IMG/VR virus record: IMGVR_UViG_3300043218_000070
Span: 1-37,534 of that record
Direction: 5' to 3' (one strand)
Length of the DNA stretch: 37,534 nucleotides
From: a virus
Taxonomy: Duplodnaviria; Caudoviricetes
Shown one piece after another: positions 11,485 to 22,947 of this stretch (positions are counted from its first letter, which is position 1; every line of letters begins with the position of its first letter). A program made the position numbers and the translations under genes. The notes beneath the pieces were generated by a model. That model did no database searches and was not told where the DNA came from. It saw only the letters and a program-made list of their open reading frames with translations.

Positions 11485-11635
11485 TGTCAGCCTCCATCAA
11501 TACTTTCCTTATATCCCTCAATTCTCTATCAATTGTAGAGCATGAAATCATCTTTGTTGCATTCTTAGACGCACTATCATTATATTTAAGCAATGAATCT
11601 ATCAACTTCAAAGCCGTTTCTATTCTAGCATCCAT
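11477..11635 (-). CDS. Small hypothetical protein, not in ORF track
   Basis: 52 aa MDARIETALKLID...; GGAGG RBS; fills the gap between neighbours. Confidence 0.55.
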   Translation of the reverse strand: MDARIETALKLIDSLLKYNDSASKNATKMISCSTIDRELRDIRKVLMEADNA

Positions 11636-11853
11636 TATTTAACCTCCAACACTTCTGTAATCTCAACCATTAATACGTGCTTATTTAATTGGTCTTCCAT
11701 ATCTAGTTTTATCCTATTCTTTAGATCAACACTACCTTTAATGATATTAATCGGCATATCTGTATTAATATCAATTTCACCGCTTTTACCTACAATACGG
11801 CCGCCGTTCTCTGCCACATTAAAATCATATTTTACTAAGTATTTTACCCTCAT
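11635..11853 (-). CDS. Hypothetical protein
   Basis: TAATG-coupled on both sides. Confidence 0.6.
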   Translation of the reverse strand: MRVKYLVKYDFNVAENGGRIVGKSGEIDINTDMPINIIKGSVDLKNRIKLDMEDQLNKHVLMVEITEVLEVK

Positions 11854-11981
11854 TACCCAACCCCCACAGCCGAAACAAAACGCTCTTCATTATCACCATC
11901 AACCTCAGCCATAAAGTGATTAAACGCCATTTCGCCGAATATGTGCTTCTCTCGCTTGTTCGTTGTTATTCTAATGCTCAT
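11853..11981 (-). CDS. Small hypothetical protein, not in ORF track
   Basis: 42 aa MSIRITTNKREKHIFG...; AAAAGGGATCAACAG RBS. Confidence 0.5.
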   Translation of the reverse strand: MSIRITTNKREKHIFGEMAFNHFMAEVDGDNEERFVSAVGVG

Positions 11982-12154
11982 CTGTTGATCCCTTTTTGGT
12001 TAACTGTGTTTTCGATCTTCTCTTCAATTGCGTCACGTACAAACTGGCTGAACTTGATTTTTAAGCCTTTAGCACACTTTGTAGCTTTTTTAGATAGGCT
12101 TGTTGGCATTCTGATATCTACCCGTTTATCGTTTGGTTTTAGTGCATTACTCAT
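11978..12154 (-). CDS. Ribbon-helix-helix (CopG-like) regulator
   Basis: KRVDIRMP.SL....TKCAK...IKFSQFVRDAIEE pattern. Confidence 0.75.
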   Translation of the reverse strand: MSNALKPNDKRVDIRMPTSLSKKATKCAKGLKIKFSQFVRDAIEEKIENTVNQKGINR

Positions 12155-12913: not shown

Positions 12914-12942
12914 GATTGATCCTTGTTATTTGCTTCTTATCC

Positions 12943-13960: not shown

Positions 13961-14554
13961 CTACACCTCGCCTTCTGGAATAACGTTGATTGGGTTGTTC
14001 CAATCTATTATGTGTTCGGCGAAAAATGTACACTCACGGTTACTTGTAAGTCCAATTGCCGTTTCCCCGTTCCAGTGACATACGCCTTTTCCATCTAACA
14101 CCCCGTACCACCCTTCCTCACGAACACACTCACAAGCCTCTTTGAAGCATCCCGCGCAGACCTGTATAGTTTTTGGGAGGATGCGTTTTAGTTGGAAGTG
14201 TGGCAATGTTGAATTAACCCATTTAATATATTCAATCTCATCATCGTTACCATCGACATCGTTACCATCGAATGAAAAACCGTACTTACCCACATCAACC
14301 ACTACTCCAACGCCATCGGTAAACTCAATACCTTCCTCAGGAACCTCCATTCCCTTAGTGGGGTATAGCGGGGGGAGGTTGGAGAAGTCTACTTCATTAA
14401 CAATGTTGTTGTTAGACACGTTACCAATAATAAAGTTATCAACCCCTATAGTTCTCTCACTACAAAGAACTTTATTATTAAATTGTCTAAGTTTTGTTCC
14501 AATTGGTAATTTGTGATCACCCACATCCAATATCTCTATAGTCTTATTTTTCAT
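13961..14554 (-). CDS. Hypothetical protein with CxxC..C.C motif
   Basis: 197 aa; AAAAAGGATCAG RBS. Confidence 0.65.
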   Translation of the reverse strand: MKNKTIEILDVGDHKLPIGTKLRQFNNKVLCSERTIGVDNFIIGNVSNNNIVNEVDFSNLPPLYPTKGMEVPEEGIEFTDGVGVVVDVGKYGFSFDGNDVDGNDDEIEYIKWVNSTLPHFQLKRILPKTIQVCAGCFKEACECVREEGWYGVLDGKGVCHWNGETAIGLTSNRECTFFAEHIIDWNNPINVIPEGEV

Positions 14555-14573
14555 TCTACTGATCCTTTTTTGA

Positions 14574-14771
14574 TTATTTGTTAATTATTGTTAAAACAAT
14601 GTGAGTTATGATAATTGCACCAACAACAACCATAGATAGGCACCCAAGCCCCAATACAATCTCTTCTTTTTTGTGTTCTTTAACCGCTAGATCACATTCC
14701 TTTTTATACAATCTTTGCTCATTTTTACGCTTATCTTTTCGACTCTGCTCCTTACACTCCTTTCTATTCAT
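14574..14771 (-). CDS. Small protein with C-terminal TM helix
   Basis: Basic N-terminus, IVLGLGCLSMVVVGAIIIT. Confidence 0.6.
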   Translation of the reverse strand: MNRKECKEQSRKDKRKNEQRLYKKECDLAVKEHKKEEIVLGLGCLSMVVVGAIIITHIVLTIINK

Positions 14772-14772
14772 C

Positions 14773-15186
14773 CTATAAATCCTTTTCGCTGGTAATTTGG
14801 TTTGTGGTGTTGGTTATTAGTGTTTCTTTTATTTCCGTTAACATTGCCCTAACGGCCCATACTTCAATTGTAGCGGCATTGCTTGGCACCTTAGAGTTCT
14901 GGTGCATAGCAAGCAGCAAGTCTTTACTCATAATCATTGCTAACATTTCCTCATTATCACCTAATTGTCGAGCCTCACCAATCTTTATACCCTCTTCAAT
15001 GCCTTCTTGATAGTCTCCTTTGGGGTTACTTGATTGGCGAGTGTCAATAACAGCCCTTGACAACTTACCCAAATGATAAAGACTTAGTCTGCTCAATATC
15101 CCAAGCTCTTTGGATTCATCAAGAATAGCCTTAAATGCTTTTCCGTATACTCCACTAAAATCATGCTTCAACTTCTCTTCACTCAT
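14773..15186 (-). CDS. Hypothetical protein sharing short segments with the Lar-like neighbour
   Basis: MSEEKLK, TRQSS and a C-terminal box shared with 15223-15558. Confidence 0.65.
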   Translation of the reverse strand: MSEEKLKHDFSGVYGKAFKAILDESKELGILSRLSLYHLGKLSRAVIDTRQSSNPKGDYQEGIEEGIKIGEARQLGDNEEMLAMIMSKDLLLAMHQNSKVPSNAATIEVWAVRAMLTEIKETLITNTTNQITSEKDL

Positions 15187-17903: not shown

Positions 17904-17932
17904 AGTATATTTAATGTTTGTTTAATTGTCAA
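17904..17932 (-). promoter_or_regulatory. Leftward early sigma70 promoter
   Basis: TTGACA-17 bp-TATACT. Confidence 0.85.
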
Positions 17933-17977: not shown

Positions 17978-18006
17978 TTGACAACCCCAAACCCTTTTCA
18001 TATTAT
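17978..18006 (+). promoter_or_regulatory. Rightward early sigma70 promoter
   Basis: TTGACA-17 bp-TATTAT. Confidence 0.85.
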
Positions 18007-18038
18007 TAAGGAACACTAATTAATTAAGGATCGACAGG

Positions 18039-18263
18039 ATGATATTGAAAACCACAAAAATAATTAAGCAGGAATTCCAGTTCCTATTAAATGAAGAAGA
18101 GCTTAATGCTATAATCAAAAACCATTTCAAAGAAAGATACTCTGAATGTGGATGCGGTATTAATTATGAGTGCAGCAATCAGGGTTACTTTAAGAATGTT
18201 GAGGTTACATTTATTGAATCTTCTACAGATTGCGAAACAGACATTAACTTAGAGGTTGAGTAA
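18039..18263 (+). CDS. Hypothetical protein, first gene of the right arm
   Basis: AAGGATCGAC RBS. Confidence 0.65.
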   Translation: MILKTTKIIKQEFQFLLNEEELNAIIKNHFKERYSECGCGINYECSNQGYFKNVEVTFIESSTDCETDINLEVE

Positions 18264-18366: not shown

Positions 18367-18585
18367 ATGAATTATAATGGTAAAATTTATGGTAAAATCG
18401 GAAGAAAGTATTTTGACACTGGAAGAACTTCTATTGAGTTTGATGCAATGGAAAAAGAACTCGCCGACCTTAAGGTATTTAAAGAGTTTGTTTTAAATGG
18501 TGTTGATGCAAAATCAGCCATGAAGATAATAGAGAAAAAAGGCTCCGATAACATTAAATTTATAGACAAAAAGGATCAGCCATGA
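18367..18585 (+). CDS. Hypothetical protein
   Basis: 72 aa, ATGA-coupled to the next gene. Confidence 0.6.
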   Translation: MNYNGKIYGKIGRKYFDTGRTSIEFDAMEKELADLKVFKEFVLNGVDAKSAMKIIEKKGSDNIKFIDKKDQP

Positions 18586-19776: not shown

Positions 19777-21021
19777 ATGACACAAGAAATCGAAGTAACA
19801 GAAGAAGTCAAGACAGGTGAGCTTACAGTGCAGAACTACGAGATAGTTGGGTTTGATGAGTCGATCATCCCAGTTAACCGAGTAGCAGAGTTGAAAGAAA
19901 AGTTCGTTCCAATGCTGCAAACTTTTGAGACTCATAACGAGAATAGAGAGGCTATACTTGAAGAGTTTAAGCAGTACACAGAGTCAGGAACCGCCGCACC
20001 TAAAGAGTTAATTGCTAGAGCAAAACGTCACCGCTTAGATATCGGAAAGATACGGGTTGCTATTGAGAAAGGCAGAAAAGCAACTAATGATGAAATAAAT
20101 AAGCAAAAGTCCGGTACAGACGCTTTGTGTAAGTTCATCAGCGAATACATCGTAAAAGATGAAAAAGAGATGGCCGCAAAAGAGGCTCATAACGATAAGA
20201 TTGAAGCTGATCGACTCAAAATAGTACAGGATGAACGCTCAAAGCTCGCTCTGGAACATGGCTTTACTGAAGATACTGATTTTTCCGGAATGGCTCAAAC
20301 TGTTTTTGATAGTATTATTGCTGGACTCAAAGCGACACGTAAAGAAGAGGAAGAGGCCAAGCTTAAAGGTGATTTGCGTATCAGTCGTCAAACTGAGTGC
20401 TTAAACCTTGTTGAGTTCGTTGAGCACTATGATGCAATTGACTTGGCGGAACTGGACGATGTTGCCTATAATTACCTTAAGAGTGAAGCTGAGAAGAAAA
20501 AACTTGAACGTGAAGAGTCAATTAAGGCTGAGAAAGAAACTGCACGTCTGGCAAAAATTGAGGCCGATAGAATACAGGAAGAAACTAGACTCGAAAACGA
20601 ACGACTCAAAGCTGAAAAGGAAGAGTCTGAAAAGGTAGAAGCCGCCCGTATTAAAAAAGAAGAGATCGCCCAGAAAAAGCGTGACGATGAGAAAGACGAA
20701 TCAGACCGTAAAGCAAGGCTGCAGAAGTTAGCAAAGGAGAAATCCGATACTGATGCCGCCCAAGCTGTTAAGGACAAAGAGGCGGCAGAACAGCGGGAGC
20801 GTGACGCAATAGCTGAGACTGAGCGCTTAAAACAGGAAAAGATTGACGCGGACTTAAGGCATGTTGAGGAAATCAAGTCTCTCACTAAAGCTTGTTCTAA
20901 AATTACAGTAGAGCAACTTGAACGGGCGCACGATGAAGGTAAAACTGTTTTCGTAAAAGTCGTATCAATTGAATTTATTGAGGGACAGGCCGGAATATTT
21001 ATACAAAGTTCAGATAATTAA
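19777..21021 (+). CDS. Long coiled-coil protein of the recombination module
   Basis: 414 aa, E/K/R/A-rich; GAGGA RBS. Confidence 0.7.
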   Translation: MTQEIEVTEEVKTGELTVQNYEIVGFDESIIPVNRVAELKEKFVPMLQTFETHNENREAILEEFKQYTESGTAAPKELIARAKRHRLDIGKIRVAIEKGRKATNDEINKQKSGTDALCKFISEYIVKDEKEMAAKEAHNDKIEADRLKIVQDERSKLALEHGFTEDTDFSGMAQTVFDSIIAGLKATRKEEEEAKLKGDLRISRQTECLNLVEFVEHYDAIDLAELDDVAYNYLKSEAEKKKLEREESIKAEKETARLAKIEADRIQEETRLENERLKAEKEESEKVEAARIKKEEIAQKKRDDEKDESDRKARLQKLAKEKSDTDAAQAVKDKEAAEQRERDAIAETERLKQEKIDADLRHVEEIKSLTKACSKITVEQLERAHDEGKTVFVKVVSIEFIEGQAGIFIQSSDN

Positions 21022-21028
21022 ATTACAT

Positions 21029-21156
21029 TATGGGTAAGGATCAATAGCACACCCATATAATTTTATAAACGAGTAATACAATCTAGTCTATGCCGCTTCT
21101 CCTCTCGCGGCAAATCTTTCTGTTGATCCTTTTCGATTGACTGGATTGTGTTACTC
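21029..21156 (+). ncRNA. Candidate regulatory RNA: decoy hairpin plus three-way junction with two anti-SD loops
   Basis: TATGGGT/ACCCATA stem; 18-bp stem 21071-21088/21139-21156 with two G-U pairs; inner TGCCGC/GCGGCA and AATC/GATT stems. Confidence 0.72.
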
Positions 21157-21173
21157 TATTTAAAGGATCGACT

Positions 21174-21602
21174 ATGAAATACAGAAAGAAACCAGTAGTG
21201 ATTGAAGCTGTTGAATGGACGGGTGAAAACCACAGAGAAATGTTTAACTTTTTAACAGGTAAAACAGAAGAATATATTGCTTCAAGTGATGATCAGTTTT
21301 ACATAGATCACTCTCAAGTGAAGGGCGGGTTAATATTAAAAACGCTTGAAGGTGAACATATAGCGTCAATAGGTGATATGGTGATAAAAGGCATATCTGG
21401 TGAGTTCTACCCGTGTAAGCCCGATATATTTGAGCTAACATACGAATCGGTTGTCAATGAAGAGAAGCGATGCCAATTTTGTGGTGGTGAAGAAAGTGAA
21501 GATGCTATGATTAAAATAGATCACGAAGACATGGATGAGACTATTTATTTTTGTGGGGAATCTTGCGTTTCCGATTGCGAGAAAGAGGGTGGATTTAGGT
21601 AA
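21174..21602 (+). CDS. Conserved phage protein (PGDYG-like) fused to a TRASH/YHS-like Cys domain
   Basis: YRKKPVVIEAV...TLEG...GD..IKG..GEFYPCKPDIF..TYE; then CQFCG...IYFCGESC. Confidence 0.7.
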   Translation: MKYRKKPVVIEAVEWTGENHREMFNFLTGKTEEYIASSDDQFYIDHSQVKGGLILKTLEGEHIASIGDMVIKGISGEFYPCKPDIFELTYESVVNEEKRCQFCGGEESEDAMIKIDHEDMDETIYFCGESCVSDCEKEGGFR

Positions 21603-21620
21603 CTAAACAAATACGACAAC

Positions 21621-21666
21621 CTTCCCTTTAATCGAAAGCTAAGACGGTTTTGGGGGAGTGTTTTAT
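21621..21666 (+). terminator. Imperfect hairpin, possible terminator or processing stem
   Basis: CTTCCC..AATCG/CGGTT..GGGGAG followed by TGTTTTAT. Confidence 0.4.
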
Positions 21667-21674
21667 AAAATGTA

Positions 21675-21750
21675 TGTAGATCAGCTCAGGTCTGGAAGAG
21701 CGATCACCATCGGGGTGATATGAGTGGGTGTTCGAATCGCCCATCTACAT
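21675..21750 (+). tRNA. Atypical tRNA cloverleaf, nominal anticodon UCG (Arg); no encoded CCA
   Basis: Acceptor TGTAGAT/ATCTACA; D stem GCTC/GAGC; ATCAC-CATCGGG-GTGAT; GGGTG-TTCGAAT-CGCCC; C8 and A33 non-canonical. Confidence 0.7.
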
Positions 21751-21770
21751 TTTAACACAAACAACAAAGT

Positions 21771-21862
21771 TTGTGAGTAAAGCGGAAATAAGTGTAGACA
21801 ACGCCTCTCATTGAAGCGCACCGGATAGTTACCTCCGGCCTGTACTAGTCAGGCACTCACAA
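21771..21862 (+). ncRNA. Degenerate class II tRNA-like fold
   Basis: Outer TTGTGAGT/ACTCACAA; CCGGA/TCCGG arm; GCCTG-TACTAGT-CAGGC (5 bp + 7 nt) T-like arm. Confidence 0.5.
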
Positions 21863-21890
21863 TTTTAACATTAACAAAAAGGATCGACGC

Positions 21891-22934
21891 GTGAAAGAGC
21901 ACATAAAAGACAACATGAAACTATACAATCGTGACTGCATGGAGGGTATGGCAGAATTAGAGGATAAAAGCCAGCACCTTATTATTGTTGATCCTCCATA
22001 TTTTGAGGTTAAGGGCGACTTTGATTTCCAGTGGGGGTCCTTTGAAGAGTATTTAAAGGATGTTGAAAAGTGGGCGATCGAGATGAAGCGTATTTTAGCG
22101 GATAATGGAACTCTTCTATGGTGGGGGAATACTAAGAAAATAGCTTATACCCAAATTATACTTGATAAATACTTCAGCCTTGAAAATTCAATGGTATGGA
22201 GAAAGATAGATTCAATGCAATATCAATATTATAGTGTAGATTTGTCACGCTCATTTAATACACATACAGAGCGGATTCTAATGTATTCAAACGAACGAGA
22301 ATCATTAGAATGTAATAAAACTGGATTGGAGCAAATTATAGATGAATATATAAAGCCAAATCACCCGTTTGCAATATATATGAGAGATGAGTTTAAGAGA
22401 GCTAAAGTTTCAAATAAGGAAATAGCCAAGTTATTCCCAAGTAAAACAGGCGGCTTGACTGGATGCGTATCAAATTGGCTAAATGGTGATAATACACCAA
22501 CAGAAGAACAGTATCTTAAAATGCGATCGTTTTTGAATAATGAATACTTACGTAAGGAATATGAATACTTACGTAAGGAATATGAAGAGTTACGTAAGGA
22601 ATATGAATACTTACGTAAGGAATATGAAGAGTTTAGAAGATTTTTTAATAACACGATGAAGCTTGAAGATGTTTTGGAGTTCAGTCAACAATCAAGTGTT
22701 ACGTCTAAATTTTCTCACCCAACACAAAAACCACCTGTTTTATGTAAATCAATTATTACTACTTGCTCAAAAAAAGGACAAAATATGCTTGTCCCTTTTA
22801 TTGGGTCAGGAGTTGAAGTATCACAAGGGGTTCAGTTAGGGTTAAATGTAACGGGCTTTGAAATAGATGAAAAATACTTTAAAGATAGCATAGAACGAAT
22901 AGAGCAAGAAACGGCTCAAATATCAATGTTTTAA
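21891..22934 (+). CDS. Orphan amino (N6A/N4C) DNA methyltransferase, beta class, with HTH and heptad-repeat insert
   Basis: IVDPPY motif IV at N-terminus; HPTQKP...LVPFIGSG motif I at C-terminus; no adjacent nuclease. Confidence 0.92.
   Translation: MKEHIKDNMKLYNRDCMEGMAELEDKSQHLIIVDPPYFEVKGDFDFQWGSFEEYLKDVEKWAIEMKRILADNGTLLWWGNTKKIAYTQIILDKYFSLENSMVWRKIDSMQYQYYSVDLSRSFNTHTERILMYSNERESLECNKTGLEQIIDEYIKPNHPFAIYMRDEFKRAKVSNKEIAKLFPSKTGGLTGCVSNWLNGDNTPTEEQYLKMRSFLNNEYLRKEYEYLRKEYEELRKEYEYLRKEYEEFRRFFNNTMKLEDVLEFSQQSSVTSKFSHPTQKPPVLCKSIITTCSKKGQNMLVPFIGSGVEVSQGVQLGLNVTGFEIDEKYFKDSIERIEQETAQISMF
22540..22633 (+). repeat. 21-bp tandem repeat (about 4.5 units) encoding EYLRKEY/EELRKEY
   Basis: ATGAA(TAC/GAG)TTACGTAAGGAAT x4 plus a partial unit. 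Confidence 0.95.
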
Positions 22935-22947
22935 AAAGGATCAACAC

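Follow-up and report, generated by a model that had tools for sequence, protein, structure and literature searches.

C4 antisense RNA of the phages P1 and P7 is described as a molecule of three stems which is processed by RNase P and occludes a ribosome binding site (RBS) with a loop (PMC5320573), and it has been assigned to the Rfam family RF01695 (PMC2864571). The CI RNA of satellite phage P4 is described as being processed from a longer transcript, with complementary copies located upstream (seqA) and downstream (seqC) of it (PMC4825925). In Vibrio cholerae, the 3'UTR-derived RNAs OppZ and CarZ pair with their own transcript and inhibit translation in a negative feedback (PMC7398697). The phage RNAs C4, CI, Sar, OOP, and aQ have one neighbouring or overlapping target each and mostly serve the choice between lysis and lysogeny, and further accounts of phage RNAs describe action on single phage targets or on host genes (PMC12197685; lambda preprint 10.1101/2024.10.31.621285). 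The start-associated sequences (SAS) of Cluster K mycobacteriophages are described as a repeated asymmetric tag at the RBS of nonstructural genes which extends past the part pairable with 16S rRNA, the RNA or protein partner being left open (PMC3203893).

The window analysed here, i.e., the whole stretch of 37,534 nucleotides, is the complete record (called G000) of a tailed phage, the genome of which measures 37.5 kb, has a terminal repeat of 126 nt, and includes genes for terminase, portal, major head, and tape-measure. The sequencing run with the best match to it is a marine sediment metagenome, possibly its source, and the matching runs listed include none of RNA, which has no bearing on expression. 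Two divergent promoters were predicted (Table 1), and genes are called early here as judged from promoter position and gene content. In the rightward operon a 177-aa gene, a gene for a YqaJ-type exonuclease, and a 414-aa anchor gene form a module, behind which lies a real, undescribed structured RNA element. Neither an integrase nor a CI-like repressor was found among 27 proteins compared to PHROGs and 52 compared to Pfam (overlapping sets covering a subset of the open reading frames); a plasmid-prophage state of the phage is possible.

Table 1. Predicted features of the element, its operon, and the complementary start sites in the window. Letters (b) to (d) denote start sites already given in the first-pass annotation.
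Feature	Position	Strand	Remark
Divergent leftward early promoter	17904..17932	-	11/12 consensus
Rightward early promoter, operon of the element	17978..18006	+	11/12 consensus
Anchor gene, 414 aa, no known family	19777..21021	+	RNA slot 3' of anchor in 7/7 genomes
-10-like hexamer TA..TT, possible weak promoter	21024..21029	+	just 3' of anchor stop
Upstream hairpin P0, loop = tag copy 21036-21047	21029..21057	+	likely intramolecular decoy or timer
AU-rich linker	21059..21070	+	kept in 4/4 homologs
Predicted mature RNA core, three-way junction	21071..21156	+	86 nt, closed by stalk P1
Stalk P1, 18 bp, two G-U pairs	21071-21088/21139-21156	+	8/17 pairs changed on both sides, 4 homologs
Arm P2, 6 bp, pyrimidine-rich loop TTCTCCTCTC 21097-21106	21091..21112	+	stem covaries, loop unconserved
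Arm P3, AATC/GATT invariant, closes seed loop	21113..21138	+	homolog alignment
Predicted target: RBS of first gene after rightward promoter (gene 18039)	18026..18039	+	14 bp, -20.3 kcal/mol, into start codon
Predicted target: RBS of gene 18582	18569..18580	+	12 bp
Predicted target: RBS of next gene 21174	21162..21172	+	11 bp, site (b)
Predicted target: RBS of DNA methyltransferase gene 21891	21877..21889	+	13 bp
Predicted target: RBS of gene 22948	22934..22946	+	13 bp, site (c)
Predicted target: RBS of gene 14771-14574	14771..14787	-	one mismatch interrupts, -17.2 kcal/mol
Predicted target: RBS of gene 14554-13961	14554..14569	-	16 bp, into start codon
Predicted target: RBS of gene 12913-12695	12915..12924	-	10 bp
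Predicted target: RBS of 42-aa gene starting 11981	11981..11995	-	15 bp, -21.9 kcal/mol, site (d)

Like C4, the element is a phage RNA of similar size with three stems and a closing stalk, embedded in its putative target operon; its loop is complementary to RBSs and may occlude them, as is described for the C4 loop, and in both sequence differences appear to set specificity between relatives (PMC5320573). As it has neither a match to RF01695 in Rfam, at gathering or with E up to 10, nor the second seed of the a'/b' pair of C4, it is not a member of C4: one seed is conserved and the second loop is without targets. Further differences are the nine predicted targets in two divergent operons, a stalk with GAG or AAG and not GGW at its 5' end, no sign of a temperate lifestyle in the proteins compared, and unrelated scaffolds which replace one another in one slot. 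Complementary copies on both sides, as known for P4 CI, are present in the window, G002, and G005, while the downstream copy is absent in G001. There is no similarity to P4 CI in sequence or in Rfam, and whereas P4 CI causes transcription termination at its own leader and lysogenic immunity, the element has many predicted Shine-Dalgarno targets, at distances of up to 9 kb. OppZ and CarZ are RNase E-derived RNAs. The element resembles them by its predicted pairing with the first leader of its own operon, which was found in all seven genomes; they are described as coming from the 3' ends of host operons, whereas the element is phage-encoded, lies in the middle of its operon, has a long stalk and an upstream putative decoy copy, and in addition matches a second operon. 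As with SAS, a repeated asymmetric tag is found a few bases before the starts of nonstructural genes, but the tag sequence is unrelated, the phage group is another one, and a candidate RNA partner was found which changes together with the tag. The element would thus work like P1 C4 or P4 CI without belonging to either. RNAIII and RsaE, which a first-pass annotation made from the sequence alone had named as analogues, are less close than these phage antisense RNAs and the autoregulatory OppZ and CarZ. The literature searched yielded no description of the element or of a phage RNA that acts on an RBS tag common to early genes, though motif tables accompanying RNA-motif surveys may contain one.

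All coordinates of the first-pass annotation, including those of the 18-bp stem with two G-U pairs, were confirmed, and the fold turned out to be beyond chance. On the + strand, positions 21020-21185 yielded -46.3 kcal/mol and a z score of -5.26, a value as low being reached by none of 200 shuffles, versus z -2.86 on the - strand. The preference for the + strand, which had been suggested before, is also seen in the homolog alignment with six G-U cells versus one A-C cell. The core (21068-21160) alone has a z score of -9.40, P0 alone folds weakly (z -1.79), and the element is in the top three of the 50 lowest-energy 120-nt windows tested genome-wide. Arm P3 displays the loop TTTCTGTTGATCCTTTTC at 21117-21134, within which the invariant seed GTTGATCC occupies 21122-21129. 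When the window sequence is folded singly, the minimum-energy structure has five seed bases paired within the arm (unpaired probabilities 0.02-0.25); the cost of opening the 8-nt seed is 3.0 kcal/mol here, compared to 1.0-1.7 kcal/mol for the homologs. Rfam gave no match at gathering for the window, and with E up to 10 nothing meaningful and no row of the C4 family for 20900-22000 and the three homolog loci, in line with the earlier statement that no described family was recognised. A terminator scan called no terminator 3' of the RNA in the window and its homologs, where more genes follow on the same strand. The -10-like hexamer is below threshold in the promoter scan of the window; a similar copy occurs at the same place in six of six relatives, across three RNA types, and promoter calls there in the loci L251 and L221 reached 9/12, which is near chance level.

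For the collection of homologs the anchor protein was used in a search blind to the RNA. This gave five loci, three with the same RNA (G001, G002, and G005, forming type A with the window) and two, G003 and G004, with another folded sequence (type B). A further genome, G006, was located via neighbouring genes and holds a third RNA type (type C) in the slot. Among the four type-A sequences, the relatedness of which inflates the signal, 95.7% of 163 cells are paired and 11 of 41 pairs are changed on both sides, eight of these in the P1 stalk; none of 500 shuffles reached this, and slid controls were 27-42% paired. Invariant in type A are the seed, the closing AATC/GATT, and the upstream GGATCAA. 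The covariation asked for by the first-pass annotation is therefore present in the stems of four phages, but not between seed and tag. The 8-bp core of the upstream complementary copy, predicted as a kissing partner, can pair with the seed in all four homologs, with seven of eight pairs invariant and none covarying. Variable stems together with an invariant seed and tag are expected if the seed has several partners. The P0 stem varies in sequence yet stays paired in three phages (window, G002, and G005), and G001 has lost the pairing. The loop of P2, previously regarded as an anti-AGGAG seed, had to be abandoned as such, since it is different in all four homologs and its start-site partners are no better than those of shuffles (99, 88, 26, and 68 of 100 shuffles equally good).

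Between anchor gene and RNA slot G001 carries an insertion of about 150 nt, behind which its -10-like hexamer is located. The insertion (L221 11250-11415) contains a 44-codon Cys-rich open reading frame and a promoter-like site and takes the place of what is the 5' strand in the upstream hairpin elsewhere; G006 has a similar open reading frame before the anchor gene.

Further contigs from two runs of one study varied in the stalk, and their loose ends again showed this seed together with the upstream copy; contigs of these runs also join across the next gene, which is different in every relative. Pattern scans of viral contigs gave 8 matches without a homolog and 14 matches with one true homolog, and further ones gave one true homolog among 14 matches and one among the 120 examined of about 280 matches, both on the same contig. 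Cultured phages yielded no match to the element; what matched was the beginning of the next gene, besides a single weak hit. In a metagenome scan none of 63 matches had the closing-stem motif, and they were judged to be chance matches. A genome collection gave one weak match only and thus neither a prophage nor a host, and a single-protein scan with gene 18582 gave no matches. A covariance model recovered only its four training sequences and one opposite-strand echo from 89 sources (1.03 Mb), which included G003, G004, G006, and 74 loci with exonuclease relatives.

At eight predicted early genes the start site carries a tag, GGAUC-R-R-Y, to which the seed region GUUGAUCC is complementary; at a ninth site the pairing has one mismatch. 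The four complementary sites reported before, (a) in the upstream hairpin loop and (b) to (d) at starts, were found as described, although (b) and (d) can be lengthened to 11 and 15 bp, respectively, each including one G-U pair. The three start sites among them are right but the set was incomplete, as six more (genes 18039, 18582, 21891, 14554, 12913, and 14771) had been missed. The nine sites form 10-16 bp with -12.6 to -21.9 kcal/mol, or -8.4 to -14.7 kcal/mol net of opening costs, and in three of them the predicted pairing covers the first base of the start codon. The distant sites use loop bases not used by the upstream copy (14-16 bp versus 12). All eight GGATC-R-R-Y tags of the window stand 4-6 nt before starts, and all between 11981 and 22948. 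R-R-Y are the letters which can pair with the G-U-U of the seed if G-U pairs are allowed. With p values that overstate independence because the sites are partly orthologous, R-R-Y comes after 17 of the 21 GGATC sites that precede starts in the four carriers and after 37 of 123 others (p 1.5e-5), C-R-R-Y follows purine-purine-GGAT starts in 20 of 43 cases in carriers versus 0 of 11 in three noncarriers (p 0.003), and 20 of 22 departures from the perfect complement keep G-U pairing (p 3e-5), the comparison being transitions at four-fold sites of the neighbouring gene (25/52, 48%). No GGATC is found at starts in G003 (complete, 21 GGATC sites) or G004 (10 sites). When the seed was permuted around a fixed anti-Shine-Dalgarno core, the five best start sites of the window, with a mean of -19.0 kcal/mol, were compared to -12.2 +/- 1.1 kcal/mol for the shuffled seeds, none of 200 being as good; the respective numbers were 0/200 for G003, 6/200 for G002, and 18/200 for G001, which is within the null. 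Among the next-best genome-wide seed matches listed above -15.9, 7 of 15 are off start sites.

That the second loop acts as a seed on a set of early RBSs in trans, as had been proposed, is supported by the comparison of relatives. In each of the seven genomes the first gene lies about 30 nt behind a promoter-like site (10-11 of 12), and these first genes are unlike one another. Three unrelated RNAs occupy the slot behind the anchor gene, namely a three-way junction with putative decoy, a double hairpin, and a hairpin plus terminator. A 7 x 7 matrix of seeds and first leaders, a comparison chosen post hoc with the data already seen and amounting to about three independent cases because it comprises four type-A genomes, two type-B genomes with identical 17-nt seeds, and one type-C genome, is block-diagonal: pairs of the same type form 8-14 bp with -11.0 to -21.6 kcal/mol, and cross-type pairs 4-8 bp with -2.0 to -9.5 kcal/mol. 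Foreign-type starts reach the score of the first gene in 0, 0, 0, and 3 of 129 cases for type A, 0 and 0 of 247 for type B, and 2 of 292 for type C. The anchor gene does track the RNA type, with 72-79% identity within type A. The two intervening proteins of G001, however, are 84% and 81% identical to those of the type-B phage G004 and 55-65% to those of other type-A phages, and the exonuclease of G003 is 75-77% identical to type A and 58% to G004. As intervening genes have been exchanged across types, linkage alone does not explain the match of seed and leader, which is kept across about 3 kb despite this exchange. Genome-wide counts of strong start-site helices, own versus foreign, were not significant for any type (A 19/205 versus 6/129, p 0.086; B 2/87 versus 0/247, p 0.067; C 4/42 versus 24/292, p 0.48), the Shine-Dalgarno filter of this count having dropped the first genes of G003 and G004. 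Within type A the seeds show no preference for the leaders of their own genome, and the G005 seed pairs only 8-9 bp.

The type-B RNA (L224 11230-11330, L223 7780-7880; z -5.27 and -3.59) consists of a small hairpin displaying CCTCACA and a long covarying hairpin, with a decoy-like copy downstream and a matching next RBS. The type-C RNA (L251 7005-7090, z -3.8) comprises a long hairpin, the loop of which is rich in pyrimidines, and then an 8-bp hairpin with a U-run after it, a terminator missed by the scan due to its 9-nt loop. Mosaicism is also visible by eye in N-terminal sequences: G001 has the early module of the window and a type-A RNA but other structural genes, and G003 has some structural genes in common with the window but a type-B RNA.

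A conserved folded element with a seed complementary to nine early RBSs is best read, with a probability of about two in three, as a trans-acting antisense RNA which represses translation. The first-pass annotation had in addition proposed a switch in cis: the seed would alternate between two partners, the loop of the upstream hairpin and the next RBS, and only the next gene would be under its control. The match to the next RBS indeed amounts to 11 bp in the window, 8 bp in G002, and 9 bp in G005, type-B RNAs too have a 10-bp match in the next RBS, and the upstream copy is kept in all four homologs. But G001 has retained the entire RNA together with the upstream copy although its next RBS lacks the tag, each relative has a different next gene, and with just 5 nt between stalk and RBS the nested refold costs 6.8 kcal/mol. 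As such a switch also leaves the matches 3-9 kb away, the sites on the opposite strand, and the block-diagonal matrix unexplained, it is quite unlikely, and as the main role it was rejected on account of G001 and the cost of refolding. Somewhat less improbable, though still unlikely, is an RNA with another job, e.g., a kissing-loop pseudoknot, a nuclease block, or a processing or stability element of the tRNA-like cluster, the tag having spread by cassette exchange or as a preferred RBS and the complementarity being a by-product. This would suit the position within a cluster of folded RNAs and a tRNA-like gene, the exchange of gene cassettes at these leaders, the pairable kissing core, and the nonsignificant genome-wide counts. 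A pairing which is internal only should however covary like the stems, but it is invariant, the distant sites use loop bases which the upstream copy leaves unused, and each of the two unrelated RNAs that relatives have in this slot matches the first leader of its own genome.

The tag might also be the site of a protein, such as a translational repressor of the CsrA type, a DNA-binding protein, or a GATC-reading methylase, with the element or its opposite strand serving as a decoy. A hairpin loop presents GGA in the upstream copy, GATC is part of the tag, and one of the phage genes codes for a DNA methyltransferase; for the comparable start-associated sequences Pope et al. leave a protein or an RNA as partner open (PMC3203893). 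Nearly all tag variation (20/22) keeps G-U pairing, however, the loop of the better-folding + strand shows the complement instead of the tag, and types B and C have other tags without GATC, all of which makes a protein site very unlikely. A last possibility retains the pairing but has transcription termination or immunity as its main output, as in P4 CI and P1 C4, instead of a timer for lytic shut-off. The architecture with complementary copies up- and downstream of a stalked RNA is the same as described for these (PMC4825925, PMC5320573), and the seed types could act as exclusion groups. With the lack of integrase and CI-like repressor in the proteins compared, and strong targets which are all Shine-Dalgarno sites, it is highly improbable; the pairing step is common to it and to translational repression.

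Since the unrelated RNAs in the same slot of the relatives also match their own first early gene, the trans-acting antisense RNA is likely a small RNA that lowers early-gene translation. It would be transcribed from the rightward early promoter and perhaps also from its own weak promoter. In the precursor the upstream tag copy may capture the seed by kissing loops, until cleavage in the AU-rich linker, the presumed processing site, would release a stable 86-nt RNA. On accumulation this RNA would mask the Shine-Dalgarno sequences of genes in both early operons, among them the leading gene of its own operon, and at three sites the masking would extend to the first start-codon base. Given that the RNA and the first gene which its seed matches belong to one operon, with the RNA 3 kb farther downstream, the outcome would be a delayed negative feedback by which early translation is shut down, and the RNA may also hinder a superinfecting phage bearing the same tag. 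The weakest step is the decoy role of the upstream copy, which shows no covariation and the hairpin of which is broken in G001.

A wider interpretation, tentative and a little short of even odds, is that of a fixed RNA slot behind a recombination module in which unrelated scaffolds are swapped while the RBS tags of the early regulon are rewritten to match. This would form a protein-free, self-timed master switch of early translation in a lytic phage, with the seed types as exclusion groups, and would suggest an RNA partner for SAS. If the antisense role is confirmed, the RNA would enable an apparently nonintegrating phage to turn down a set of early genes via a shared RBS tag, which would offer an answer to the question for the role of start-associated sequences, described as open in 2011 (PMC3203893). 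The three natural pairs of seed and leader form an orthogonal test set which, if positive, would provide orthogonal translational repressors.

A second conserved stem-loop follows the variable gene in all four type-A phages (window 21600-21668, + strand; L222 11556-11625; L220 5370-5440; L221 11890-11958). Its outer stem is C-rich/G-rich, its inner hairpin has an almost invariant loop, AA(A/T)GCTAAGA, and changes in the stem are compensated; there is no Rfam match, and the fold alone is weak (z -1.67). Adjacent to it, ARAGORN called a tRNA-Arg(TCG) at 21674-21751 (+) which Rfam did not call at gathering. It has an atypical anticodon loop (A before the anticodon, GG after it) and no encoded CCA, and is possibly a pseudo-tRNA; contigs of the relatives skip this stretch, and in G002 the tRNA slot (L222 about 11630-11790) is another noncoding stretch of about 160 nt with complementary ends. 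A third multistem element (window 21771-21863, + strand, z -2.6; L221 about 11957-12045) is nearly identical in G001 and absent at this place in G002 and G005. Within the DNA methyltransferase gene the window has four to five in-frame tandem repeats of 21 nt at 22540-22644. Finally, a strong two-armed fold at 1161-1280 (z about -6.2 to -6.4 on both strands) overlaps gene 1246-773 at its start and also a GC hairpin that is flanked by T/A runs.
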